Positions 17,677 to 51,953 of a DNA stretch of 64,000 nt are shown piece by piece. Origin of the DNA: Alphaproteobacteria bacterium (GTDB taxonomy: Bacteria; Pseudomonadota; Alphaproteobacteria; UBA7887); contig CBDCGL010000011.1 in the NCBI GenBank assembly GCA_965216755.1, positions 2,240,001 to 2,304,000 of the forward strand. Reading direction: 5' to 3'. The position numbers and the translations under genes were made by a program. The notes beneath the pieces are model-generated. The model was not told where the DNA came from. It worked only from the letters and a program-made list of their open reading frames with translations, and made no database searches. Each line of letters opens with the position of its first letter. The first letter of the stretch is position 1.

Positions 17677-19649
<1,973 letters not shown>

Positions 19650-19855
19650 CGCCCACCACCGCCAGGCGGCGACCCAACATCGCTTGCATCTTATCCTCCC
19701 AAAATCACATTCATTGCGGCGCGTCTTCCGGCGCCTGGGCGAGGCGATTATTTCGGCAAAAGGCGTTTGTTACAACCCCGGTGTCGCCGACGTCCGCCAG
19801 CAACCTTGCCAAATCGGCACCAAATCACGGGCCCGCCGCCCGAACAATCGCCCAC

Positions 19856-20593
19856 CTATGACGATGCGAGAGCCAAAACGGGCGTGCCAATAGAAAGCCG
19901 AAGCAGGTCGTCGGCGCGCCCTTGATTGACGGCTAACTCGACCAAACCATTGGAATTTTCGTACCAGATCGGCATACCCTTTGCGACATCGGAAAATGTA
20001 CGCGCATGAGGGATGGTTTGTCGACCAGCCTTTAGAACAGCATCGGAGGGCAAGGTGCTGGCGCGCATGCCGGTCATCGCATTGCCATATGTATCGATGT
20101 AAACAACTTCGCCCAAATCATCCAGCCAATCCGCGCCCGCGACTGTCGCCGGGTCCAACCGGGTGCCATCCACAGGTTCATGGCCGGTCAGGGCCGCAGC
20201 AACCGGCGCAAAAAGGTCGCGGCCATGAAATGTCGCACTGAGTTGATCGGGGCGCCAGTCGATCTCATACCATTCAATTTCTTGGGCGCGCCGCGACACA
20301 ATGGCAAACAAACCATTGTCCGGGCCCACAAACCAACGATCGTCGGCACGTACCATAATGGGTCGTCTTCCAACATTTCCGACACCCGGATCGACAACGC
20401 CCAAACATACGCAACGTACCGGCAGCTGTTCGGCGAGCGCTGCCAAAAGATAGGCCGCGGTCTTGGGGTCGAATGTTGGCGCATCGTGCATCAAATCAAC
20501 CACCGGCTGATCCGGGTCGCACTTGGCCAGCGCCACTTTGAGCTGCCCCACATAGGGGCCTTCCGTGCCAAAATCGGTAAACAAAACAATCAT
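19856..20593 (-). CDS. DUF62 SAM hydroxide adenosyltransferase (SAM hydrolase; fluorinase/chlorinase superfamily)
   Basis: MIVLFTDFG, VVDPGVG..RR, GPDNG, ATFHGRDLFAP, YIDTYGN, NSNGLVELAVNQG; RBS GAGAAGGA. Confidence 0.92.
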   Translation of the reverse strand: MIVLFTDFGTEGPYVGQLKVALAKCDPDQPVVDLMHDAPTFDPKTAAYLLAALAEQLPVRCVCLGVVDPGVGNVGRRPIMVRADDRWFVGPDNGLFAIVSRRAQEIEWYEIDWRPDQLSATFHGRDLFAPVAAALTGHEPVDGTRLDPATVAGADWLDDLGEVVYIDTYGNAMTGMRASTLPSDAVLKAGRQTIPHARTFSDVAKGMPIWYENSNGLVELAVNQGRADDLLRLSIGTPVLALASS

Positions 20594-20606
20594 CGTGAAA
20601 TCCTTC

Positions 20607-22832
20607 TCAGTGGCGGCCCACGGCGCGCGCACCATGTGTCATCGTCACCAATGCCGCAACAAGAACCACCACCAGACCAATCCAAAGCCAGGTCATCATC
20701 GGATAGATGCGCAGCACAACCGGTACTGTCGACGGCGCGCGCACTAAGTCGGGCGACGCGCCCGCCGCTTGCGCCGTTGGCGCCTCGGCGCCAACCGCGG
20801 TATAGGAAATCGCCGGCAACCACACTTGCACATCGCGCCACCAGCCGCGATGAATAAACGGGTCAATGATTTGGCTTGCGCCGCTGATGGTGCGCGCATA
20901 ACGATAATCCAGAATTTCGCACATCAGACGGACCGGGCCCAAACCACCCGGCGCCGGCGGTTGGCTGTCACGATAGGCCGCTTGTCCGACAGCGCTTTGT
21001 ACGACGTCATCGCCGCGCCGCCGTTGCCACGCGACGCGACCGAGCGCCGAAAAGCCCCCGGCTTGGTCACCGCTGCCACGGCGGCCATCACGTGCAATTT
21101 GCTCGCGCTCGATGTCGACAGTGATCGCGTAGCCCCACGGGAAATCGATTGATTGGCCAAATCCCTCCGGAAAGCGTACGTCACGTTTGGTGTGGACATC
21201 ATAGACAGTGGCAACGGTGGCACTGAACAGGGCGACGACCAAGCCCGCATGGATGACACCAATCGGCAGGTAATAGCGCGTGACGACGCTATGGCGGCCG
21301 CGTCGGCGCATGCCGTCGATGGCCCAGACAAGGGCGGCCACAGCAAAATAGCCCATGGCCACCGCCAAACCGTCGAGCCAAGGAAATATCGCCGTCGTAT
21401 TAGCCGAGGTCATGCCTTTCCCGGTATAAAAAATCCCGGTCGGCGCGATGAAATACGGCACGAACGCGGTCGCGCAAATGACCGCGGCAGTGACGCCCCA
21501 ACGGCTTTGCCAGTGCCGAAGCGGCAGGAAATTGTGGCCGCCGGCCCAGCCGACGACAATACCAATCACCGCCAGCCAGGCATTGACCCCGAACCGATCG
21601 ACATCCCATTGGGCAAAAAGCTGATCCAGAGACTCGGCCTCGCGGGATGACACCCAGCGCGCCAAAAATGCAAAAAACGGTTTCAGCGAGGCCGGTCGGG
21701 GCCAATCCTGCCACTCAGCGATGTAGGCTTGGGCAATATAGCCAGCGGCGACGGTCGCCATGACCGTGAGCGCCAAAACCGCGATGGTGATCATCACGGC
21801 GGCCTCATTGCGGCGCGGCGCCTCCACGTTGCGGCCGCGCGCGCGCCACAATGCCCAGGGAATCGCGGCGGCAACAACAATGGCCCCGACCAGGATCCAC
21901 GGAAAAGACGTCTCGCCCACATAGCGGTGGGACGATGCCAAGGTTGGGGTCCGCGTGATAACCAGTGACAGCAACGCCGCCAGTGCGGTGGCAATGCCCA
22001 ACAGTGGGCTTAGGCGCGCATACGCACCATTGGCGCGATAGCGACGGATGGTATGCAACTGTGCGGACGCCAGGGCCCAGACGACAAACACCGATGTCTG
22101 GACGACATCCCAATGCCAAAACGCCCCAAAGGTAAAGTCTTCATAGGCCCACCACATACCGGCGGCAAGTCCGGCCGAAAGGATCAACCAGCCCCAACGC
22201 ATGTGACGGGCCGCGACCGCGGCCCATGCAGTCCCATCCCGCGCCAAGGCTTCAAACGCAGCGCCCATGGGCGCAACAAAAAAGGTGTAGGCCACAAAAA
22301 CCATCGGTGGATGCAACAACATCCAGAATCGCACCAAGTGCGCGTTCATGCCGCGTCCGTCCGCTGCCGCAAGATAGGCTTCGGGCGTTGCGGTGAAAGG
22401 CGACCACCACACGGCCCCCGACGCGAATAACGCCGTCACCAACAGGGCACCACGTCCCGTCCATGTTCCATAATTGGTCAGCGCGACGGCCGCCACGGCG
22501 CTGAAAGCACCGAGCCCCAGCAATGTCCCTTCATCGCCACCCCATAAATTAGCAAGCTTATAATACCAAGGCAGCGCGGTGGCGCTGTAAAGCCATACGT
22601 AATTGACGTTGAAACGATCGAATAGCAGCGCGTGCGCCAAGGCCAGCATCGCCGCGCACAACAGCACGGCGGCGATGGTGGCTGCCGCGTTTTGTCGACG
22701 TGGCATCAGGAGACCGCCGAGGATCGCCGCCAGCGCGCCAACCACCGAGATCTGTGACGCCAAGCCGCCGATCAGCATCAGCAGACCGGCCAAGAGTGCG
22801 GCGATGGTGACTGTTGTGAGCGTCCGGACCAC
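20607..22832 (-). CDS. Divergent CcmF/NrfE-like cytochrome c synthetase (heme lyase)
   Basis: YKLANLWGGDEGTLL, LHPP, WWAYEDFTFGAFWHWDVVQT (WWD-like), AQLH, SSHRY, IHAG, IYPMMTWLWIG; likely GTG start 4 nt after the qhpE stop. Confidence 0.85.
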   Translation of the reverse strand: MVRTLTTVTIAALLAGLLMLIGGLASQISVVGALAAILGGLLMPRRQNAAATIAAVLLCAAMLALAHALLFDRFNVNYVWLYSATALPWYYKLANLWGGDEGTLLGLGAFSAVAAVALTNYGTWTGRGALLVTALFASGAVWWSPFTATPEAYLAAADGRGMNAHLVRFWMLLHPPMVFVAYTFFVAPMGAAFEALARDGTAWAAVAARHMRWGWLILSAGLAAGMWWAYEDFTFGAFWHWDVVQTSVFVVWALASAQLHTIRRYRANGAYARLSPLLGIATALAALLSLVITRTPTLASSHRYVGETSFPWILVGAIVVAAAIPWALWRARGRNVEAPRRNEAAVMITIAVLALTVMATVAAGYIAQAYIAEWQDWPRPASLKPFFAFLARWVSSREAESLDQLFAQWDVDRFGVNAWLAVIGIVVGWAGGHNFLPLRHWQSRWGVTAAVICATAFVPYFIAPTGIFYTGKGMTSANTTAIFPWLDGLAVAMGYFAVAALVWAIDGMRRRGRHSVVTRYYLPIGVIHAGLVVALFSATVATVYDVHTKRDVRFPEGFGQSIDFPWGYAITVDIEREQIARDGRRGSGDQAGGFSALGRVAWQRRRGDDVVQSAVGQAAYRDSQPPAPGGLGPVRLMCEILDYRYARTISGASQIIDPFIHRGWWRDVQVWLPAISYTAVGAEAPTAQAAGASPDLVRAPSTVPVVLRIYPMMTWLWIGLVVVLVAALVTMTHGARAVGRH

Positions 22833-22836
22833 CGGG

Positions 22837-23565
22837 TTATCGACCGCCGGGGTCGGCGCTGCCACGGCGCTCTGGGCCACAAAATCGTGCCATCTGCCGC
22901 AATCGGGCGATGGCCTGAGACGTGGTCCGCGGCTTGCGCGCGGCCGTATCCCGCGCCAGTAGACCGCATGCATGCGCGACGGCGAAACTGGCGCCGCCGG
23001 CGGATGGTACGTCGCGCTCACCAACAGCATCTAGCGGCCGAACATGGGCGCCGAAATCGGCCTGCGCGCTGTTGAGCCAAGAGATCTCATCGACGGCACA
23101 ACGCGCATCGCCGGTGATCCTGATTACACCGGGGTATGCGGCCGGATAAACCGGGTCACCTCGCGCCGGCGCCGAGGCCAGCAGCACGGCACCCGCGGCA
23201 CACGCGGCGGCGCATGCGGTTCGCAGGACCGGTCGGTCGGCCCTGAGTCCGAAGCTCAGCGTGATCAAATGCACGTCCTGGGATATCAGCCAGTCCAGGC
23301 CCGCGGCCACCACCTCGGCGGTCACCGGATGCCGACGTGTAAAGACTTGCGCGTTGACCAAGACCGCGTTCGGCGCGTGATGCCACATGATCCGAGCCAA
23401 CGCCCCGCCATGGCCAACTTGATCCGCTCGGGCGGGCCCAGTTTCGATTTGCCCGGCTTGGTTGCGTACAAAGCGGCGTTCGGCGATCACATGAGACACG
23501 CGGGCAGCATCCACACCGCTGTCCAACAAGCCAATACGCACTGCGGTATGGTCAGCGACTGTCAC
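22837..23565 (-). CDS. qhpE: Subtilisin-like leader peptidase for the QHNDH gamma subunit
   Basis: Triad motifs LLDSG, GHG, GASFAVAH; YPAAYPGV; short with no signal peptide; GTGA overlap with qhpF. Confidence 0.88.
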   Translation of the reverse strand: MTVADHTAVRIGLLDSGVDAARVSHVIAERRFVRNQAGQIETGPARADQVGHGGALARIMWHHAPNAVLVNAQVFTRRHPVTAEVVAAGLDWLISQDVHLITLSFGLRADRPVLRTACAAACAAGAVLLASAPARGDPVYPAAYPGVIRITGDARCAVDEISWLNSAQADFGAHVRPLDAVGERDVPSAGGASFAVAHACGLLARDTAARKPRTTSQAIARLRQMARFCGPERRGSADPGGR

Positions 23566-25313
23566 GGCCGTGTGTCGTGGGTAGCGCGCCCGGACGACTG
23601 TGGCATCAATTGGCCATCGACCAAGGTCACGATTTCATCCGTACCAATCAGCGCATCGGGGCGATGCGAAATGATGATCCGCGTACGATCTGCAAAGGCG
23701 GCGTCGACCGCTTCAACCAACCGGCGTTCCGTTTCCAGATCCACGGCCGACGTGGCTTCGTCCATCACCAAAATACGCGGATCCTGCAACACCGCGCGCG
23801 CGATGGCCAGGCGCTGGCGTTGGCCGCCAGACAGGCGCGCGCCGCGCTCACCAACGGGCGTGTCATAGCCTTCTGGCAAAGTTGACACAAACGTGTCAAT
23901 TTGCGCGCGGGCGGCGGCAGCGCGCACCGCAGCAGCGTCGGCTTCCGGCGCAGCGTAGCGAATATTGTCGGCGATCGAACCACGAAACAGCACGATATCT
24001 TGGGCGACGACGGCAACCGTTTGGCGCAATGCCGCCAAATCCAGTTCACGCAGATCGATCCCATCAATCACGATGCGCCCAGCTTGAGGATCGAAATGGC
24101 GGTGCAAAAGATCTATCAGAGTTGTCTTGCCGGCCCCAGAAATGCCTGCCACGCCAACCTTCGTGCCCCCGCGAATGGTTAGGCTCGCGCCATCCAAAAC
24201 CACGCTTGAATCACCCGGATAGGCAAATTCAACTGAGTCAAAAACGACCCCGCCGACGCCATCCGCGGGCAGTGGCCGTGGCATCGCGGTCGGACGAACA
24301 GCAGGCCGTGCCATGGTCAGGCTGCGCACGCGATCCAGACTGACAGCCATACGCATCATACCAATATAAACACCGAACAGACTTTGCACCGGCCCCACGG
24401 CAAATCCGAGATAGGTTGAGAACGCAATCAATGTGCCGATGGTCAGCTCACCCCTGATGATCATCGCGCCGCCGGCCAAAAAGACGAGCGCTCGACTAGC
24501 CGAAGTCAGCAGGTTGGGTACCGCGGCGGTAAGAAACTCGGTCACTTGCAGCCGCAACAAGTCGCCAAGATAGCGTTGATTGAGGCGGCGCAAGCGCGCC
24601 ACCTCGCGCGCTTCGGCAGCGACCGATTGGATGAACTTCATCGCCGGTAAGGTTTCAACCAGAAACGCGGTCAAATCACTCAATCGTTCGCGCACAGTGC
24701 GCGTGCGCACTTCGACGCGCGGCCGCATGCGGCGCAGAAACAAAGCCTCGACCGGTAAAAGGACGAGGGCGACCAGCGTCAATTCCCAGCTTAGCCACAG
24801 CATCAGTGCCAAGGCACCGATCAGGCCCAATACGCCATTGACGGCCGCCAGCACGGCATCAACGCTGAAGCGCTGCAACGCAGCTACATCGCCATCAAGT
24901 TTCTGCAGCACGTCGCCACTGCGCGCTGCGGCAAAATATGCGGGCGACAAGGTCTGCAAATGACCGTACACCGCCTCGCGCATGGTAAACAGGACCAAGC
25001 CGGACAATTTGACGTGCTGGTAGCGGTTGACGCCACCCACGCCCAGATTCACGATCCCGGTCGCCAAAAGCAGTCCGGTCAACGCCGTCAACCAAGCGAA
25101 ATCCCCGGCTAGGATGCCATCGTCGATGATCAGCTTCATGATGTAGGGCTGGGCGGTAATGATCGCCGTGGCCAGCGCAGACAGTACCAAGACTGCGATC
25201 AATCGGCCCTTGTGCGGTCGCACATAGCCGAACAACCAGCGCAACGACTCGGCGTCCAGGAGCGACGGGATCGAAGGCGCCACCTGCGGCTCAGCCATAC
25301 CCGCCAGCGCCAT
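23562..25313 (-). CDS. qhpF: ABC exporter (TMD+NBD) for the QHNDH gamma subunit
   Basis: Hydrophobic N-terminal half, GISGAGKTT, LSGGQRQR, MDEATSA; located in the qhp operon. Confidence 0.87.
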   Translation of the reverse strand: MALAGMAEPQVAPSIPSLLDAESLRWLFGYVRPHKGRLIAVLVLSALATAIITAQPYIMKLIIDDGILAGDFAWLTALTGLLLATGIVNLGVGGVNRYQHVKLSGLVLFTMREAVYGHLQTLSPAYFAAARSGDVLQKLDGDVAALQRFSVDAVLAAVNGVLGLIGALALMLWLSWELTLVALVLLPVEALFLRRMRPRVEVRTRTVRERLSDLTAFLVETLPAMKFIQSVAAEAREVARLRRLNQRYLGDLLRLQVTEFLTAAVPNLLTSASRALVFLAGGAMIIRGELTIGTLIAFSTYLGFAVGPVQSLFGVYIGMMRMAVSLDRVRSLTMARPAVRPTAMPRPLPADGVGGVVFDSVEFAYPGDSSVVLDGASLTIRGGTKVGVAGISGAGKTTLIDLLHRHFDPQAGRIVIDGIDLRELDLAALRQTVAVVAQDIVLFRGSIADNIRYAAPEADAAAVRAAAARAQIDTFVSTLPEGYDTPVGERGARLSGGQRQRLAIARAVLQDPRILVMDEATSAVDLETERRLVEAVDAAFADRTRIIISHRPDALIGTDEIVTLVDGQLMPQSSGRATHDTRP

Positions 25314-25336
25314 TGCGCGAACCAGGGCGGATATAG

Positions 25337-25366
25337 AAAAAGGGGGCCGGCCCTACGCCGCCCCCC
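25337..25366 (-). terminator. Intrinsic terminator/attenuator between qhpB and qhpF
   Basis: Minus strand GGGGGGCGGC-GTAGG-GCCGGCCCCC-TTTTT. Confidence 0.65.
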
Positions 25367-25390
25367 ATACCCACTCCGCTCGTAGAAAGC

Positions 25391-26518
25391 TTATCGTTGG
25401 ACCACACGAAACGTGCCGGCGCCTTGGTCGCCACCGCCCGGCAATTCGATCGTCGCAATCTGTTCCAGAGTTTCGGTTGAATGAATAGCGATGTCGTCGA
25501 ACGTGCTACCGATGTAAATCTCGGACCCATCACTCGACACGATCGCCGAATAATAAGTGTGATCTAGCTCGATGCGATGGACCAGGTCGCCGGTGTCCAA
25601 ATCGTACTTGCTGAGGTGCGAGTAGACGCCATAGATGTGCTTGGGATCAGTGGGGCTTTTGGCCAGCGAAAAGATAATCAGGTCCATCGACGCGATCGGC
25701 ACCTGGCTCACCTCGTTGGTGGTCAAATCGATCATTGTCGCGCCCAGTTTGAAATCTACCATCTCATCGAAATTACCCGCGTCGCGCGCTTCGCGGCTGG
25801 AAAACTCTGGCGCGCCAAACGGCATCACCATGGTTTCAGTGGTTTCGTAGATCGGCCAAAACGCCAGACCGTCGGGCGTGCCGTACGTTGGCTGGGTCTC
25901 CTGCCAATACAAGATCGGAATGGTCTCGACAATGGTGCCGGACGCCATGTGAATCTTGTACAGATCATGACCGCCCGCCCAGATATGCTCGCCGTCGGCC
26001 GACGGCGCCATGATGGTCAAACCACGCGGCACGTCGAAGGTACGTGTCGGCGTCGCCTCTAAGCCGGCGGTGGCATCAAAAACCGCCACCCGGTGTGGCA
26101 AGATCGTGTAGCGATCGCTGAGCAGCTCGACCCGCGATTGCATCGCATAGATCTCACTGCCGTCGCGTGTCACCGTCATGGCACCGATCGTTTTGCCGCG
26201 AATATTGCCTTCCGACATATTGGCGCGGAACACTTCTTCGCAGGTGTCCAGGTTGATGCCCGAAATTTCGCCCCAGCCCGCGGTGACGACATAGGCGACG
26301 TCGCCGTCCGGATTGACAGACACGGTCAGCGGCGAGCCGCGTCCTGGAATATCGCAATCGCGCACCACCTCGCGCGCGGCGACATCGATCAAGAACAGCT
26401 TGTTCGGTTTGCTGATAGCGACAATAAAATCGGCAGACAGGGCCGGCGTCGCCGCAGACAGCGCGACTCCGGCGAGCCCAACCGTCGCGATCAGTGCATG
26501 CGTCAGGACTTTGCTCAC
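25391..26518 (-). CDS. qhpB: QHNDH beta subunit (beta-propeller)
   Basis: GTG start after GGAGG, signal peptide, KPNKLFLID, GINLDTCE, LDHTYY, IELPGGGDQ; follows qhpC. Confidence 0.88.
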   Translation of the reverse strand: MSKVLTHALIATVGLAGVALSAATPALSADFIVAISKPNKLFLIDVAAREVVRDCDIPGRGSPLTVSVNPDGDVAYVVTAGWGEISGINLDTCEEVFRANMSEGNIRGKTIGAMTVTRDGSEIYAMQSRVELLSDRYTILPHRVAVFDATAGLEATPTRTFDVPRGLTIMAPSADGEHIWAGGHDLYKIHMASGTIVETIPILYWQETQPTYGTPDGLAFWPIYETTETMVMPFGAPEFSSREARDAGNFDEMVDFKLGATMIDLTTNEVSQVPIASMDLIIFSLAKSPTDPKHIYGVYSHLSKYDLDTGDLVHRIELDHTYYSAIVSSDGSEIYIGSTFDDIAIHSTETLEQIATIELPGGGDQGAGTFRVVQR

Positions 26519-26574
26519 CTTATCCTCCCACGTTTTTTTCTTCTTTGGCTCACCGGCGTGATGTCTCGCCTGCC

Positions 26575-26907
26575 CTACACCGTGCCGTCGCCGGTTGGAA
26601 ACACTGATTCCAGCAGCCGCCAGTCGCGTTCGGCCGACGGCGCATTGGCGTTCCAGTCTGGATAGGTATTCAGCGTATCCGGTACCTGGGCCGGCCACCA
26701 GCATGGGTCGGCACAACCGTACAGATCAGCCTCCATGGGCTGACACAGCGACGCGACACCGCCGAACGGATCGACTTCCCAACCGGGATCCAGGGTGGTC
26801 GAGCAACCGGCGACGACTTGCATCATCATCACTTCCTCGACCTGGCCACCGTCGATCGCTTTATCGACCACGTCCGCCTTTCTGTTCATGGACTTCAGAT
26901 GCTTCAT
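26575..26907 (-). CDS. qhpC: QHNDH gamma subunit precursor (CTQ and thioether-crosslinked peptide)
   Basis: 28-aa leader MKHLKSMN...; core [13 protein letters not shown]...[24 protein letters not shown] keeps the C7/E16, C27/D33, C37/W43 and C41/D49 positions. Confidence 0.97.
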
Positions 26908-28337
26908 TTGTAAGCCCTCCGAGGCTCGATATGTCTGGCAAAAAAGCCTGGGTTCCGATTCATGATCCGGGTGTAAACGTCGATACCGAAGTCGACCCAG
27001 TCACGCATCAGATCGCAATAGTGATAGGTCGGGTGCACCGGATCGTTGTAGTGGGCATAACTCTCATGATAGCAGCCGCCCGAGCATAAATTCCGAATTC
27101 GACAGGTGTCGCAGCCGCGATCGGTCCGGTCGAGTCGTGACTCGAGGAATTTCCCCAACCTCGGCTTGTCCAAACCCGCATCGACGTCGCCGAAGGTGTC
27201 CAGATCTGAACCGGTAAAGCGATGGCACAGATTGATGCCGCCGCCGGTGTCAACGGCAACCAGGCCCAGTCCGGCGCCACAAGGCAACGCTTTGGTCATG
27301 CCCTCCGACAGATCGGTCATCAGCTGATGCATATTGCCGAAGCCGATATTGCGGTCTTCGCACGCCGCGTCCTGGTAATTGCGGCCGAGCGTCTTCATGC
27401 CGGCGAAGACTTCGGCCAATTCGTCACCGTTCAATTTGAACAAGGCGTTATCGGACGACGTCACCGGCGAAAAGCCGACCTCGTGAAAACCAATATCGTT
27501 GATAAGATGATCCCAAATCGCCACCACGTCGGTGACCCCGGCGGTCAACGTGACCCGTGCGCCGATTGGCCGTGAATCGTAGCGGTCCAACAGCATCCTG
27601 GCTTTCGCCGCGACCACGTCATAGGTGCCAGCGCCGCCCACCGTGCGGCGATTGATATCGTGCAGGGCCTTTGGCCCGTCCATGCTGATGGTCAGGCCGA
27701 AGCGATGCCGATTGAGATAGTCGACAATCGGCGCGGTCAGCATGGTCGCGTTGCTGGTCATGGTAAAATCGACGCGCTTACCCAATTCGCGCGCGCGCCG
27801 TTCGGCATACTCGACCACGTCCTTAATCAGCGGCAAATTGGTCAACGGTTCGCCACCGAAAAACACGACATTGAAACGATCGCGCGCGCGCCCTTCCTCG
27901 AGCAGCATTTCGATGCTCTTGACCGCCGTCTCGAACGACATTTTGTCGCCCTTGGCGGGCGTTGTCAGATCTTCTTTGTAGCAATAGGTACAGCCCAGAT
28001 TGCAACCGGTGTTGACGTTCAAGACAACGGTGGAAAGCGGAAAATTCTCTATCTTGATCTGCTTTTGTCGAGCGCGCACCGGGCGGCCATCGCTGACCAC
28101 CTCAAGGTCAATGAATTCCTGCAGGGCTTCGGTCACTTCTTTGGGCGGCACGCGGCCTTCAAAACGGGCGCGGACATCGCCCGCGGTCACGGATCGCGTT
28201 TCCGCGAACAAATCCATGATTTCACGGCCGACCGGATCGAGCTCGAACAAACTGCTGGTCGGAATATGAAACAGCATCCGCCGCGGTCCGACATCGACCT
28301 GGTGGACATTGCTGTCAACCAATTGCAGCGTGGTCAT
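26904..28337 (-). CDS. qhpD: Radical SAM/SPASM thioether-forming maturase
   Basis: [11 protein letters not shown]-terminus, [36 protein letters not shown]. Confidence 0.96.
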
Positions 28338-28427
28338 CGGTGCCCCCGCATGTCCGCATGCGGCGCACATTTTTGCCTGCGCCGCATGCTTTTTCGTTTG
28401 GGGTTCTTGGCTGGGATCATGACCGCG

Positions 28428-30029
28428 TTACCGAATCGGCGGATCGTTCCAGCGTTGCACGGTGACGATAAGCTGCCCGGAGCCGACCACCTCGTTGCCA
28501 TCGTCATTGATGGTGGCGTCGACCCGCAAATTGCCAGCGTTGTTGGTCCGGAATGGCCGCTCTGGATTCAAGCCCGCGCCAGCCGGTACATAGACCCCGG
28601 TATTGGGATCCATTGCGCCGGCGTATTTTTCATCCTCCAGCTCGGCCGCCACTTCGTCAAACGGTACCGCAGCCCAAGTCGCGGGCATTGAACCGATGCG
28701 AATATCGTCATCGGTTCCGGCCTCACCGTCGGCCCCGTTGGCGTAGGCGACCGCGTCAAACACCGCATTGACCAAGGGCGTCAGTCCGCCATTGCCGCCA
28801 ACCCGCGCGATGTTGTACGGCGGCTCGACTTGAACCGAATCGACTTGGGTATAGACCGCGAACAACCCGTCGGCCTGGCTGCCGCCGACCGAGATCCCGC
28901 GCCCGCCAACGGCGGCATCGGCCGCCGCCTCGGCACGCACGACGATCGTGTTTGCATCGGCGGACACGGTTTCCAGCACGGCTACGCCGTCGCCCAAGCT
29001 GACGTCGCCACTGAGGCCCGTGCCATGCACCGCGATCTCCGCGGTCTGGCCAGATTTCAGATAGGCCGGCTGAACGGCCATAATGTGGCCGCCCGACCCA
29101 TCGCGCACGGCGACGATATTGGCGCCGAACTCATCCGCACCCAACTGAAATGCGCGGCCCGCAATGCGGTTGCCATCCTCGGAAACGGTAAAAACGGATC
29201 GGTTGACGTCGCCGCGACTGTTGGTCGACCGTCCACGCCATTCATAGCCGGTATAAAGAATGCTCTCGCCCGTGCCCGAGACGGTTGAGCCATCGGGATA
29301 GGTCGCCTCAAACGAATAGCTATATCTGTCGTCGCCTATGCTCTCGACCGTCATCATACCTTGTGACACGCCGCGGCTGGGCGCGTGCGCCACGACCCGC
29401 CAGCTTCCGGACAAGTCGGGGCTCTGAAATCCTTTCCAGGCGTTCCACGCGTCGGTTTCGAAGGGAAAGCGCTCCGTCAACCAATCGACCGTATCCGTCG
29501 TCGCAATCTCAAACCACTCGCGGTCGCGACCATAGAATTGATATTCCGTGGTCGGCCATTGGCCAAGATGGAAATGGACGTGCAACAACCATTCGTTGCG
29601 CGTGCGCCGCTGTAACGCGCCGCGCGCGCCACTGTGGCAGCGTGCGCACATCAGACCATATTCGTCCGGGAAGTCTTCGATCGCGCCGGGCCGTTTCTCT
29701 AGAATATACCGATAAGGTTCAGTCTCGGCGGGTGCTAGGCCCTGGGTATCGGAAAGGTACTTGACCAAGGCGCGCCGTTCCTCGGCCGAGACTTCGACGC
29801 CGTGCATGATGCCCATCCGCACTATCGTCATCAGCCACCCTTCGGGCGTTTTGCGCTGCTCGGCAACGCGACTGAGGCCGCCATCCTCTTGAGTATGGCA
29901 ACTACCACAGCGAGCATTGAGAATTTCGGGTCCATCCGCCGCCGTCGCGACGCGGGTGGCGCCACCTGCCGCAAGGTTTAGCGACACCAAAATCGCAAGC
30001 GCCACAGGGCTATAGAAACCTATGCGCAT
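28428..30029 (-). CDS. qhpA: QHNDH alpha subunit (diheme c)
   Basis: Signal peptide, CGSCH, QRKTPEGWLMTIVRM, CARCH, HFHLGQWPTTEYQ, YTGYEWR, TVQRWNDPPIR. Confidence 0.96.
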   Translation of the reverse strand: MRIGFYSPVALAILVSLNLAAGGATRVATAADGPEILNARCGSCHTQEDGGLSRVAEQRKTPEGWLMTIVRMGIMHGVEVSAEERRALVKYLSDTQGLAPAETEPYRYILEKRPGAIEDFPDEYGLMCARCHSGARGALQRRTRNEWLLHVHFHLGQWPTTEYQFYGRDREWFEIATTDTVDWLTERFPFETDAWNAWKGFQSPDLSGSWRVVAHAPSRGVSQGMMTVESIGDDRYSYSFEATYPDGSTVSGTGESILYTGYEWRGRSTNSRGDVNRSVFTVSEDGNRIAGRAFQLGADEFGANIVAVRDGSGGHIMAVQPAYLKSGQTAEIAVHGTGLSGDVSLGDGVAVLETVSADANTIVVRAEAAADAAVGGRGISVGGSQADGLFAVYTQVDSVQVEPPYNIARVGGNGGLTPLVNAVFDAVAYANGADGEAGTDDDIRIGSMPATWAAVPFDEVAAELEDEKYAGAMDPNTGVYVPAGAGLNPERPFRTNNAGNLRVDATINDDGNEVVGSGQLIVTVQRWNDPPIR

Positions 30030-30105
30030 AACCTCCCCTTCCTCCGACTTCGGCCGCACATACACGCGACGGCCGCAGCGCGGCTTATTCTTGATGATTA
30101 ATGAA

Positions 30106-30134
30106 ATGTTCTTGTGAAACGGGCGGCGAGTCAA
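30106..30134 (-). promoter_or_regulatory. Possible sigma70-type promoter of qhpA
   Basis: Minus strand TTGACT-N17-GAACAT about 75 nt upstream of the ATG; -10 is weak. Confidence 0.35.
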
Positions 30135-30304
30135 GGCGCCCGAAATCACGATAATCGGCCGTGAGGTGCCTGATGGAAGAGGTTGCGCCGGTCGCGACCG
30201 CGCGCAGCACAAAAAACTGCGCTCAGCCGCCGGCCTCTCGTCTTGACACGCACCAACGCCCAACATGCCCGACCGCACGACGTCCGGTAGGGTTATGGGG
30301 TTCG

Positions 30305-30739
30305 TCAGGCGTTAATGTATTCGCGAAGCTGGTTCGCTTCTTCCTCTGCCTCGCGGATCCGATACTTAACTACATCACCGATGCTCACGATGCCGACCAA
30401 GGTGCCGTCAGCGAGGACCGGCAAATGCCGACATCGCCGCCTGGTCATCATCGACATGACGTCGTCGATGGTGGTCGACTCGGTAACCGACAACACGTCG
30501 GTGCTCATCAATGTCTCAACTTTTTCATCCAAGCAAGCGGCGCCGCGTTCGGCCACACCATAAATCATGTCGCGCTCGGACATCATGCCGACCACGACGC
30601 CGTCAGCACCGGTCACCACGACGGCGCCGATGCGATGATCTACCAGACGCTTGGCGAAATCGCCGATCCGCACATCCGGGGTCACGGTAACAACCGCCAC
30701 CCCCTTTTCTTGCAATATGTCGCGTACATACATAGCCAA
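30305..30739 (-). CDS. CBS-pair domain protein
   Basis: VRDILQEKG, HRIGAVVV, SERD, RHLPV, GIVSIGDVVK. Confidence 0.92.
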   Translation of the reverse strand: MAMYVRDILQEKGVAVVTVTPDVRIGDFAKRLVDHRIGAVVVTGADGVVVGMMSERDMIYGVAERGAACLDEKVETLMSTDVLSVTESTTIDDVMSMMTRRRCRHLPVLADGTLVGIVSIGDVVKYRIREAEEEANQLREYINA

Positions 30740-30925
30740 CCCCCTGCCGCCGAGCGGGGGGGCCGAGTCAGGTTGCGGGCGCCCCCTGGTTTTCGATCAC
30801 CGGGTTTGCCACCGCGACCCCCCGATCAGCTCTTCAACACAAGTATAGCCCAAAACCGGCTATTCCCCAAATCGAGTCGCTGGCGCACGCACCCCAAGCA
30901 GTTGGCCATATTGCCTTTATTGTCT

Positions 30926-32956: not shown

Positions 32957-33555
32957 AATGGCCCCAGCTCCCTCCCAGTTGCGGGCGCCACGCCTGCGTT
33001 TGGCCATAACACCAAACCACGTTCGGCGGCATCCCGTTGTCATCGGTCCGTAATTGATTCCGGGGCCGTGCTCGAGAGGCAAGCAAAAGCGACGCCGGTC
33101 AGCCTCAGAACCTACAATATTTTCGAATGGCGTCGCCGGAGAAGCGCGCTAGCGACGCGCGGCCGGCACGCACACGACGAAAGCCAGCAGCCAGAGACTG
33201 ACCACACGCGACGGGCGCCGGCGAGACGAGCCGGCGCGCATCGTTACTTGGAGCCACTGCACGACGAGAAATTGACAATAACGCACTATCCTGGTCAGGA
33301 TCTTAGTTCGTGGCCGTAAAAGCACAATATCGACGCCGTTCGACATTTTCGGACGCAGGGCGCGTTTCCGGCCCAGGGGCGCCCAGCATGGAGTCGTCCG
33401 ATCCGATTTGGCCGCATTACCCCGCCATTTCGTGGCCCTGGACGATCAGGGCTTGGTGCAGGGAACACATAGCCCTACTCTATTCCGTGCCATGAATGTG
33501 GCTCAGGAATGGGCCGGAACAACCGGCTATAACGTTGGGAGGAGGAGCAAAACGG

Positions 33556-34194
33556 ATGAGGAAGGCTGTAGATCCGACAACATGGTGGAAGCGCCGGCTC
33601 GGTGCGGCCATCGTCACGTTGTTGGCGGCACCGGCCTTGGCGCTGATGACGGCACCTGCTGCCGCCGAAGACGCCTCGGCCGAGGATATCAAGGAAGGGT
33701 TTCGGGTATCACAGACCTGTGCAGGCTGTCACGGCCCGGCAGGCGCGGCGCCCGGAAATACCATTCCCGTCATCGGCGGACAACACGCGAAATATATCGG
33801 CGATGCACTGCGCGACTACCGTGCCGACAAGCGCGACTATTACGTGATGAACTACATCGCGAAAGCGTTTTCCGACGACCAGATCAATCAGATTTCGGCG
33901 TGGTTTGCGGCTCAAGATTGGGTGGCAACGGAAACCGCGCACAATGAGGCCAGCGCGAGCATGGCGGCGCCACGCGCCGAGCGCTTGTGCGCCCTGTGTC
34001 ACGGCCCAACCGGCGAAGGCACTGACATCGGGCCACGCATCGCGGGTCAGCCGGCGGCCTATTTGGCCAGCGCGTTGCAAGCGTACAAGGCCGGCAAACG
34101 CACCAGCGACACGGCCCTTGCGATGACGTTGGTGCAAAAGATCGCCGACGGCGAGCTCGACGCTCTCGCCCACTATTATTCCAGCTTGCGCTAG
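33556..34194 (+). CDS. fccA: Diheme cytochrome c4-type subunit of flavocytochrome c sulfide dehydrogenase
   Basis: RBS GGAGGAG, signal peptide, CAGCHG and CALCHG, directly upstream of fccB. Confidence 0.82.
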   Translation: MRKAVDPTTWWKRRLGAAIVTLLAAPALALMTAPAAAEDASAEDIKEGFRVSQTCAGCHGPAGAAPGNTIPVIGGQHAKYIGDALRDYRADKRDYYVMNYIAKAFSDDQINQISAWFAAQDWVATETAHNEASASMAAPRAERLCALCHGPTGEGTDIGPRIAGQPAAYLASALQAYKAGKRTSDTALAMTLVQKIADGELDALAHYYSSLR

Positions 34195-34203
34195 GAGGCG
34201 ACG

Positions 34204-35499
34204 ATGAGATTTGATCGCAGAACACTGCTCAAATACGGCGCCGCCGGTGTCGGCGCACTGGCAACGTCGCAACTGCCGCTGCCAGCCCTGGCGGCGGGTG
34301 AAATTATGCCGAAATCGGGCCCACGGGTGGTTGTCGTGGGTGGCGGTTGGGGCGGCGCCACGGCCGCCAAATATTTGCGGCTGATGGCCCCGTCGATCGA
34401 AGTCGTCATGATTGAAAAGGAAGATGCATTTCGATCATGCCCGGTCAGCAATTGGGTGATCGGTGGTCTCAGGACCATGGACGACATCACGGTCGCCTAC
34501 GACACCTTGGCCAACGTCCACGGTGTCAAGGTCGTCCAGGACACGGTGACCGGCATCGATCCCGCCGCCCAAACCGTCACCGTCAGTGAAGGCTCCATCG
34601 CCTATGATCGCCTGATCCTTTCGCCGGGTATCACGCTGATTTACGACGGTATCGAAGGCTTGACCGCGGAAACCGCGCGTGACGTGTTCCCCGCCGCCTG
34701 GAAAGCGGGCCCGGAGACCCAGCGCCTGCGCAATCAGTTGGCCGCCATGGAAGATGGCGGCACCGTGGTCATGACCGTACCGCTGAGCCCCTATCGCTGC
34801 CCACCGGGGCCCTATGAACGCGCGTGCATGATCGCCAATTACCTGAAAACACACAAAAGATCGTCCAAGCTGATCGTTCTCGACGCAAATCAGAAAATCG
34901 TCTCAAAAGGCAAGCTTTTCCAAGCGGCCTGGGACGATTTCTACAGCGACACCATCGAATATTGGCCAGACAGCAAGGTGGTAAAAGCCGACCCGTCGAC
35001 CATGACCGTGTCGACCGATTTCGACGACATTAAGGGCGACGTCATCAATATTGTGCCCGAGCAACGGGCCAATGATTTGGTTGACGCCGCCGCGCTACGC
35101 GCCCAGGGCCGGCGCTGGGTTGCGGTTAATCCATGGGACTATCAATCGACCGAGCAACCCAACATTCACGTGATCGGCGACGCCACCGATCAAACAACTG
35201 TCGGCAAAGTGCCGAAATCCGGCTTCATTGCCAATTCAATGGGCAAAGTCGCCGCGGCCGCCGTGGCCGCGCGCATCGAGGGCCGCGAACCGAGCCGGCC
35301 GAGCATGGCCAACACCTGCTACAGCCTGGTGAGTGCCGATGAGGGCATTTCCGTCACTGCCGTCTATGACTGGAACGAAGAGGAATCGAAAATGGCGGCC
35401 ATCGAAGGTGCCAAGGGCTTGTCACCGGAGCGTTCGGCCGAGGTCGCCGCCAACGCCGAAGACTGGGCCCAAGCGATTTGGGCTGACATGCTCGGTTAA
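34204..35499 (+). CDS. fccB: Flavocytochrome c sulfide dehydrogenase flavoprotein (FccB/SoxF)
   Basis: Tat signal RRTLLK, VVVGGGWGG, SCPVSN, YRCPPGPYER, PKSGFIANS, NTCYS. Confidence 0.93.
   Translation: MRFDRRTLLKYGAAGVGALATSQLPLPALAAGEIMPKSGPRVVVVGGGWGGATAAKYLRLMAPSIEVVMIEKEDAFRSCPVSNWVIGGLRTMDDITVAYDTLANVHGVKVVQDTVTGIDPAAQTVTVSEGSIAYDRLILSPGITLIYDGIEGLTAETARDVFPAAWKAGPETQRLRNQLAAMEDGGTVVMTVPLSPYRCPPGPYERACMIANYLKTHKRSSKLIVLDANQKIVSKGKLFQAAWDDFYSDTIEYWPDSKVVKADPSTMTVSTDFDDIKGDVINIVPEQRANDLVDAAALRAQGRRWVAVNPWDYQSTEQPNIHVIGDATDQTTVGKVPKSGFIANSMGKVAAAAVAARIEGREPSRPSMANTCYSLVSADEGISVTAVYDWNEEESKMAAIEGAKGLSPERSAEVAANAEDWAQAIWADMLG

Positions 35500-50042: not shown

Positions 50043-51953
<1,911 letters not shown>

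Follow-up and report, generated by a model that had tools for sequence, protein, structure and literature searches.

The closest described counterparts of the locus analyzed here are the qhp operons (qhpABCDEFGR) of Paracoccus denitrificans and Pseudomonas putida, which encode the three subunits of a quinohemoprotein amine dehydrogenase (QHNDH) together with the proteins involved in its maturation, and which we take to contain no gene related to ccmF. As described in the accessible part of Oozeki et al. (2021, PMC7876137), QhpD, a radical S-adenosylmethionine (SAM) enzyme, makes the thioether cross-links in QhpC, and the order and strands of the qhp genes vary between organisms. The second point of comparison is CcmF, the holocytochrome c synthase of the System I cytochrome c maturation machinery (Thermus thermophilus structure 6ZMQ; Escherichia coli CcmFH), with its paralogs NrfE (NrfEFG, for the CXXCK motif of E. 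coli NrfA) and those of the Shewanella SirA type. NrfE-type paralogs come with their own CcmH-like partners. In the available portion of PMC6976685, such dedicated CcmF paralogs are reported to serve non-canonical heme motifs. Here we analyze a 64-kb stretch of an alphaproteobacterial genome (the window, meaning that stretch at its full length), where a complete qhp operon is followed directly by a divergent CcmF paralog, referred to below as the CcmF-like gene. The analysis points to a conserved, optional companion of qhp, whose product is, as far as its sequence allows one to judge, most likely a heme lyase dedicated to the diheme subunit QhpA.

Eight closely packed genes on the minus strand span 19856-30029, in the order qhpA-D-C-B-F-E, followed by the CcmF-like gene and a DUF62 gene. 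They were named from NCBIfam equivalog models (bits against the cut-off of each model) and from Pfam domains, as follows.

28428..30029, minus strand: qhpA, QHNDH alpha subunit (533 aa; TIGR03908, 626.9 bits against 274)
26904..28370, minus strand: qhpD, radical SAM/SPASM maturase (TIGR03906, 743.7 bits against 453)
26575..26907, minus strand: qhpC, gamma subunit precursor carrying the cysteine tryptophylquinone (CTQ) cofactor (110 aa; NF037958, 169.9 bits against 50, full length)
25391..26518, minus strand: qhpB, beta subunit (TIGR03907, 352.3 bits against 223)
23562..25313, minus strand: qhpF, ATP-binding cassette (ABC) exporter with fused permease and ATPase (ABC_membrane and ABC_tran domains; no equivalog model matched)
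22837..23565, minus strand: qhpE, subtilisin-like leader peptidase (NF049966, 250.8 bits against 165)
20607..22832, minus strand: CcmF-like gene, divergent CcmF paralog (741 aa; PF01578, 38.5 bits against 29.9; TIGR00353, 105 bits against 569)
19856..20593, minus strand: DUF62 gene, of the SAM hydroxide adenosyltransferase family (245 aa when started at the 20593 ATG; PF01887, 153 bits, and PF20257, 76 bits)

QhpA starts at 30029 and shows four Pfam QHNDH alpha domains, a signal peptide and a diheme cytochrome c part with CXXCH at residues 41 and 128. QhpC retains Cys7, Glu16, Cys27, Asp33, Cys37, Cys41, Trp43 and Asp49, numbered after a 28-residue leader; the cross-link and CTQ roles of those not singled out in the next sentence, including that of the Cys37/Trp43 pair, are partly presumed by us. 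Trp43, Asp33, the Cys41-Asp49 ring and the leader are named in the accessible text of PMC7876137. The start of qhpB is probably the GTG at 26518, behind GGGAGGA, and QhpF keeps its place between qhpB and qhpE in relatives, with 66-68% identity. The qhpE stop (TAA, 22839-22837) is separated by 4 bases from the GTG at 22832 that opens the CcmF-like gene, whose own stop (TGA, 20609-20607) is followed by 13 bases, including GAAGGA, and by the DUF62 ATG at 20593. This gene order, these junctions and the complete set of CTQ and thioether residues in QhpC had been reported in the initial annotation of the stretch, and all of them are borne out by the sequence. The eight genes include no U32 (UbiU/UbiV-like) gene. 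No second qhp operon is found in the window's own genome. Judged from its genes, the locus appears to be an ordinary, intact qhp operon (qhpADCBFE) for a periplasmic QHNDH. It shares subunits A, B and C and maturation proteins D, E and, putatively, F with the model operons, and a QhpG is encoded in the genome; it differs from them in that qhpG stands 1.56 Mb away and belongs to another QhpG lineage than that of same-family relatives, in that no AraC regulator is adjacent, and in the appended CcmF-like gene.

A word-based protein search yielded 199 relatives of the CcmF-like protein at E <= 0.001 among 8000 candidates scored, and the 120 relatives listed are mostly of about 740 residues, 38-60% identical to the window's protein, with source names that say at most "CcmF" or "CcsA". 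Genomic surroundings were collected for the best 80 of 110 relatives (one genome per species, scanned with a 19-sequence alignment). At least one qhp gene is present in 68 of these 80 loci; among loci with at least 8 kb on each side, 43 of 44 carry at least three of qhpA, qhpD, qhpC and qhpB, and of the 12 loci lacking any qhp gene, 11 have a short flank on one side or both. In 61/68 loci the distance to the closest qhp gene is no more than 500 bp, and in 66/68 every qhp gene has the same orientation. The linkage spans alpha-, beta- and gammaproteobacteria in three arrangements: in 30 loci, from alpha- and betaproteobacteria, the CcmF-like gene comes after qhpE; in 27, for the most part of the Pseudomonas nitroreducens/citronellolis group with some Rhodocyclales, it stands before qhpA; and in 4 (Emcibacter, Thauera) it comes after qhpB. 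In Emcibacter-type loci, a SelO gene comes next after the CcmF-like gene.

Where the CcmF-like locus showed no qhp gene, QhpD is encoded elsewhere in 4 of 5 genomes. The sole well-flanked locus without a qhp neighbour (L023, NVTE01000012.1, 10001-11920) comes from a genome with qhpD on another contig, so that the CcmF-like gene and qhp can evidently be unlinked. A complementary view is given by a set of 61 genomes, composed of the window's own and 60 relatives. The 52 relatives negative for QhpD yield one CcmF-like match only, which is a remnant in the same-family relative G009: a 134-residue C-terminal piece with an internal TGA (L111 6323-6610, G009:C3), with the CBS gene on one side and the conserved downstream flank on the other. 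This scar looks like a clean deletion of the whole qhp operon. The linkage maintained across rearrangement in three classes, the genome-wide co-occurrence and the decay after qhp loss together argue that the CcmF-like gene is a real, conserved companion of qhp, functionally tied to it.

These same data bear on the simplest alternative, namely that the CcmF-like gene is a mere hitch-hiker on shared mobile or syntenic DNA with no role in QHNDH. That the gene is optional, having been lost or gained several times, would fit such a case, which nevertheless is very unlikely given that the linkage outlasts three gene orders in three proteobacterial classes, that co-occurrence holds genome-wide even when the genes are unlinked, and that the gene decays once qhp is lost. 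The family moreover appears to be under strong purifying selection, with 48 invariant columns across 67 CcmF-like sequences. As for the initial annotation, it had proposed to test whether this CcmF clade co-occurs with qhp and anti-correlates with qhpG: the co-occurrence holds, and the anti-correlation fails, since qhpG lies inside 34 of the 80 loci. It had also stated that a qhpG elsewhere in the genome together with no conserved linkage of the clade to qhp would refute its proposal. A distal qhpG was indeed found, and the linkage proved strongly conserved, so the part of that proposal concerning a dedicated heme-handling membrane protein survives.

The CcmF-like protein matches TIGR00353 over model positions 1-316 of 578 only, far under the cut-off, with the wider PF01578 family recognized; NrfE models are among its best NCBIfam matches (95-101 bits). 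The family profile has a match to T. thermophilus CcmF (6ZMQ) that covers positions 35-390 (E 7e-31), and identity to the genome's own CcmF is 29% over residues 48-338, the CcmF-like protein being about 80 residues longer. An AlphaFold2 model built on a 67-sequence alignment (mean predicted local distance difference test, pLDDT, 92.5; predicted template modelling score, pTM, 0.94) shows a membrane body made of helices, with a beta domain (residues 546-711) and a final membrane helix, as in CcmF. A Foldseek search with the predicted model retrieves 6ZMQ over the whole length (E 2e-15; template modelling score 0.69, target-normalised), the next match having E >0.1. The protein is read as a deep-branching paralog of System I CcmF, with the full CcmF fold in this model.

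Conservation was read over 67 sequences, whose identity to the window's protein ranges from 36 to 57%. The WWD heme site is found at residues 228-246. Three histidines that are invariant or nearly so align, both in 6ZMQ and in the genome's own CcmF, with the known heme-related positions: His174 (in LHPP) with P-His1, His260 with TM-His1 and His302 (in SSHRY) with P-His2. His528, conserved to the same degree, lies within a predicted membrane helix and is inferred to be TM-His2. Trp228, Ala229 and Asp242, again invariant or nearly so, correspond to E. coli W229, A230 and D243, which position the heme according to the accessible part of PMC10746174. Fold, WWD heme-positioning residues and two periplasmic plus two transmembrane histidines (His528 as the putative second of the latter) are shared with CcmF, one difference being that the CcmF-like protein is encoded in a dehydrogenase operon and not in a ccm cluster.

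Concerning QhpG, the flavin monooxygenase that takes part in building CTQ, no QhpG-like stretch is found in the window by tblastn with six QhpG proteins (best E 0.27), no qhpG remnant lies between the CBS-domain gene and qhpA, and the genome's AraC-type genes above the Pfam cut-off, four in number, all lie outside the window and away from the distal qhpG. The initial annotation had observed both absences correctly, and had offered two explanations for that of qhpG, a gene elsewhere in the genome or a distinct maturation that is perhaps less O2-dependent. The first one is what the genome shows. With the NCBIfam equivalog NF049967 as QhpG profile (cut-off 240 bits), the own genome, which is 99.8% complete, yields a single QhpG over the cut-off, with 451 bits over model positions 1-423, at C11:3831740-3833035, 1.56 Mb from the qhp operon; the next best match in the genome reaches only 48 bits. 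When this distal QhpG is aligned with 7CTQ, a solved structure of QhpG (E 8e-69), it retains Glu42, Arg47, Arg70, Trp183 and Arg314, as well as Trp74, Glu84, Trp181 and Phe322, with a numbering offset of 2 between the 7CTQ chain index and the paper that was inferred from the agreement of several named residues. Replacing any of the first five nearly abolishes QhpG activity, as reported in the accessible part of Oozeki et al. (2021, PMC7876137).

Presence of QhpG follows that of QhpD closely. Within the 61-genome set, QhpD occurs in 9 genomes (one as a contig-end fragment) and QhpG exceeds the cut-off in 8 of these 9, the remaining genome being 86% complete with a contig that ends where qhpA begins. 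None of the genomes lacking QhpD in this set has a QhpG over the cut-off. An even class sample of 401 genomes (397 of them also <=5% contaminated) contains QhpD in 14, all 14 with QhpG, which lies on the contig of qhpD in the 13 QhpD genomes besides the window's own. In the 11 genomes new to this sample the distance between QhpG and qhpD is 1.5-7.3 kb.

The history of the distal gene was read from a QhpG tree of 50 rows (48 QhpGs plus two sub-cut-off relatives as outgroup; 2 partial matches and 11 duplicates were excluded). The window's QhpG forms a clade with that of relative G003 (SH-like approximate likelihood ratio test, SH-aLRT, 100; 62% identity), nested among operon-linked QhpGs and separate from the operon-linked copies found in the same family (43% identity to these); for comparison, same-family identities are 69-73% for QhpD and 59-61% for QhpA. 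In G003, elongation factor G (EF-G), CBS and qhpA genes follow one another with nothing between, and its QhpG is on another contig. The closest relatives show qhpG-qhpADCBFE-CcmF-like as one string. The most economical scenario would be that the common ancestor of the window genome and G003 lost the qhpG that is seated between CBS and qhpA in relatives, and that these two genomes depend on a copy from a different QhpG lineage, gained elsewhere. CTQ would then still be made by the known O2-dependent route via the distal QhpG, since this protein is encoded 1.56 Mb away in the same genome. Without qhpG, the gamma subunit is known to be lighter by 28-32 Da and to lack its quinone.

The immediate surroundings of the distal qhpG are of a different kind. 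It overlaps by 4 nt the upstream gene for a family 2 glycosyltransferase (GT2, PgfS/ArnC-like), which in turn follows a gene for a B12-binding radical SAM methyltransferase (707 aa, KedN5 family), the block being G000:C11:3831674-3836379 (L089 9672-14379, minus strand), with GtrA-like membrane protein and epimerase-family genes nearby. These GT2/B12-radical SAM surroundings are an odd home for a peptidyl-tryptophan dihydroxylase. In G003, the QhpG neighbours are cupin, short-chain dehydrogenase/reductase and alcohol dehydrogenase genes. When the GT2 and B12-radical SAM genes were considered as possible QhpG partners, homologs beside QhpG were found in none of the 80 loci nor in G003, and their context was judged incidental.

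It could be argued from these neighbours that the distal gene serves another substrate of the glycosyltransferase/B12-radical SAM cluster, with QHNDH matured otherwise or inactive. The 4-nt overlap, the proximity of the B12-radical SAM, GtrA-like and epimerase-family genes, and the 43% identity to same-family operon-linked QhpGs against 69-73% for QhpD are all in line with this proposal, which we consider improbable. The genome contains no other QhpG-family gene, and the distal one scores within the range of operon-linked QhpGs (451 against 373-483 bits), retains the five residues essential in mutagenesis and branches within the operon-linked QhpGs in the tree; moreover, relatives without qhpD have no such gene, and the closest homolog, that of G003, lacks the glycosyltransferase context. 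Thus, there is only a small chance that the distal QhpG does not serve QhpC.

With respect to regulation by the AraC-family activator QhpR, the Pseudomonas qhp-linked AraC protein has no relative in the window's genome at E 1e-5, nor is this AraC type seen in the same-family relatives among the 80 loci (L001-L005, L028). The genome search suggested by the initial annotation was hence productive for QhpG and gave no QhpR homolog of this type.

The DUF62 gene had been viewed in the same annotation as an extension of the operon by a SAM hydrolase, a view that the comparison with relatives does not sustain. Its product has N- and C-terminal SAM_HAT domains, and NCBIfam (R)-SAM hydrolase models stay below their cut-off (172 against 350 bits), because of which no exact function was assigned. 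DUF62 is present in 4 of the 80 CcmF-like loci and was not found outside the window's family. The order in that family is EF-G, CBS, qhpG in some genomes, qhpADCBFE, CcmF-like, a 449-residue gene on the opposite strand, DUF62, acyl-CoA synthetase and ABC ATPase. The 449-residue gene, without Pfam match, is seen in L101 (16620-17969, minus strand) and also in L103, L107 and L111, and is absent from the window. In G009, where qhp was lost, the 449-residue gene, DUF62 and the remaining flank are still in place. On this comparative basis DUF62 appears to be a flanking neighbour and not a part of qhp. A local deletion of the opposite-strand 449-residue gene in the window genome would have put DUF62 13 bases behind the CcmF-like gene; it may be co-transcribed with the CcmF-like gene here, by accident of the deletion. 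No evidence was found that DUF62 serves the radical SAM enzyme.

The second explanation offered for the missing qhpG, a distinct, QhpG-independent and less O2-dependent QHNDH maturation built on the CcmF-like protein and the SAM hydrolase, can be weighed at this point. It draws on the absence of qhpG and AraC genes from the 64 kb, on the presence of nirS in the window and on the many carriers in genera such as Thauera and Azoarcus, which are known for denitrification. It is contradicted by the QhpG of this genome and of all 14 qhpD genomes in the class sample, by the closest relatives with qhpG, qhpADCBFE and the CcmF-like gene in one string, by the 34 CcmF-like loci out of 80 that include qhpG, and by a DUF62 gene which is rare among the loci and stays after qhp loss. 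Such a system is therefore extremely unlikely.

The window's genome also encodes a normal ccmE-F-G-H-I cluster, in which CcmE, CcmF_C and CcmH were confirmed by Pfam models, and ccmG and ccmI were named from open reading frame size and position only. All five of the carriers tested among beta- and gammaproteobacteria likewise have CcmE and a canonical CcmF. The CcmF-like paralog thus seems always to be extra to the housekeeping System I set, without a partner gene of its own. A complex prediction for the CcmF-like protein with the genome's CcmH scored 0.01 against a mark of 0.32, which is not evidence either way. QhpA was considered as the bearer of a special heme motif needing its own lyase, and this possibility was discarded, as among 77 distinct QhpAs no alignment column separates operons with the CcmF-like gene from operons without it; two CXXCH motifs are found in 7/7 QhpAs from operons without the gene and in 67/70 others, the remaining three showing one motif.

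Taken as a whole, we regard as rather probable the reading in which an ordinary qhp operon is served by a distal QhpG, the CcmF-like protein is a heme lyase dedicated to QhpA, and DUF62 is a neighbour. In mechanistic terms, the WWD site of the CcmF-like protein would take over heme from the housekeeping holo-CcmE, and the protein would then link it to QhpA at both CXXCH motifs; the outcome would be a private maturation line for a diheme subunit made in bulk on induction. As to such induction, the accessible part of PMC5023235 reports for Methyloversatilis universalis that three qhp genes (listed as QhpA, QhpB and QhpC) are up about tenfold on methylamine; it gives a seven-gene cluster, qhpRADCBFE, and that part of the paper makes no mention of a CcmF-like gene. 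M. universalis is a carrier of the CcmF-like gene (L061). The situation resembles that of NrfE and of the Shewanella SirA paralogs, in that a second CcmF-type gene stands beside its putative cytochrome with the housekeeping Ccm system also present.

A number of observations weigh against this reading. The CcmF-like gene is present in only 5 of the 14 QhpD genomes of the class sample, and on a QhpD tree the nine operons that lack it are dispersed, so that well-supported branches require at least 5 changes; this tree has 73 rows and is biased, as 62 of them were collected through the CcmF-like gene itself. Since many qhp operons lack it, the gene appears to be an optional accessory of qhp. The QhpA heme sites are ordinary CXXCH, for which the housekeeping CcmF evidently suffices elsewhere, and exactly one CcmH was found in 11 of 12 carriers (the twelfth being 83% complete), with no CcmH paralog accompanying the CcmF-like gene. 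In contrast to NrfE-type paralogs with their odd motifs, the target here has two plain CXXCH and there is no partner gene. In the protein itself, the second half gives no Pfam CcmF_C match at E 0.01, the WWD site is non-canonical, with PVQT for PVEN after the WWD tryptophans and an extra near-invariant His240, and the periplasmic domain contains an invariant Cys638 which, together with the invariant His165, is absent from canonical CcmF. On the side of QhpG, the distal gene is probably not co-regulated with qhp because of its overlap with the GT2 gene, and its genomic context is not conserved in G003.

Most of the points on the protein and its target can be turned into a different proposal, in which the CcmF-like protein would have no lyase role and would be a heme-handling membrane protein put to a new use, either a stable heme-b or periplasmic-heme module passing QhpA electrons to the quinone pool or a helper supplying oxidising power for the last periplasmic oxidation and cross-linking step of CTQ. 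The invariant periplasmic Cys and the extra His of the WWD site would then hold heme permanently instead of passing it on. A second lyase does look redundant, because the housekeeping CcmF is present in every carrier tested and matures QhpA where the paralog is absent; the canonical QhpA motifs, the lack of a CcmH paralog and the family-only His240, His165 and Cys638 are consistent with such a change of role, and the transmembrane heme b of CcmF has been proposed as a redox centre in the accessible part of PMC10746174. On the other hand, all residues that position or ligate the transferable heme in CcmF are kept, as a working synthase needs, and both the quinone site and the stable second heme of this proposal are hypothetical, a matter of pure inference. 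We therefore consider repurposing unlikely, and a QhpA-dedicated lyase remains the preferred role for the CcmF-like protein.

Upstream of the operon, the following features were delimited.

30030..30304, minus strand: 275-bp non-coding stretch upstream of qhpA, candidate promoter region
30305-30739: small CBS-domain gene, upstream of qhpA

The stretch at 30030-30304 is likely the promoter region of qhpA; a sigma-70 consensus scan (promoter/terminator scan of 19400-30800) lists no site in it, with counts at chance level that were left unused. An EF-G gene is also located upstream. A flavocytochrome c sulfide dehydrogenase pair (cytochrome c subunit, then flavoprotein) occupies 33496-35499 on the plus strand of the window, 3.5 kb upstream of qhpA. 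Downstream of DUF62, the window continues with genes for an acyl-CoA synthetase and for an ABC transporter of the branched-chain type. The organism bears nirS, as the initial annotation had stated: the cytochrome cd1 nitrite reductase gene lies at 50043-51944 on the minus strand (Cytochrom_D1, 490 bits, plus a cytochrome c domain).

Two further observations concern variation of qhp among relatives. G003 has an insert of about 1 kb with two small open reading frames (120 and 192 aa) between qhpB and qhpF (L101 10995-12018), without counterpart in the window. In two loci of the same family f84, L126 (G105) and L129 (G246), qhpE, F, D and G are present, and qhpA, qhpC and qhpB were not found by tblastn at E 1e-8 over 20 kb per locus; these may represent a diverged or heme-less relative of the qhp system.

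In the full-text literature searched, which leaves most subscription journals outside, no paper linking QHNDH with CcmF, CcsA or cytochrome c biogenesis was found, and the family of divergent CcmF paralogs reported here, conserved with qhp yet optional, is not described there. It should be noted that a qhp cluster without qhpG is by itself no evidence of an oxygen-independent route, so that the whole genome must be checked in such cases. The CcmF-like family is a candidate ninth qhp gene in numerous genomes of Pseudomonas, Thauera, Azoarcus, Methyloversatilis and alphaproteobacteria, and several of the carrier organisms are easy to manipulate genetically. A CcmF paralog family with a plain CXXCH target and without a CcmH partner raises the possibility that heme attachment can limit the assembly of a strongly induced enzyme or, as the other possibility for such a family, that the CcmF fold does something else here.

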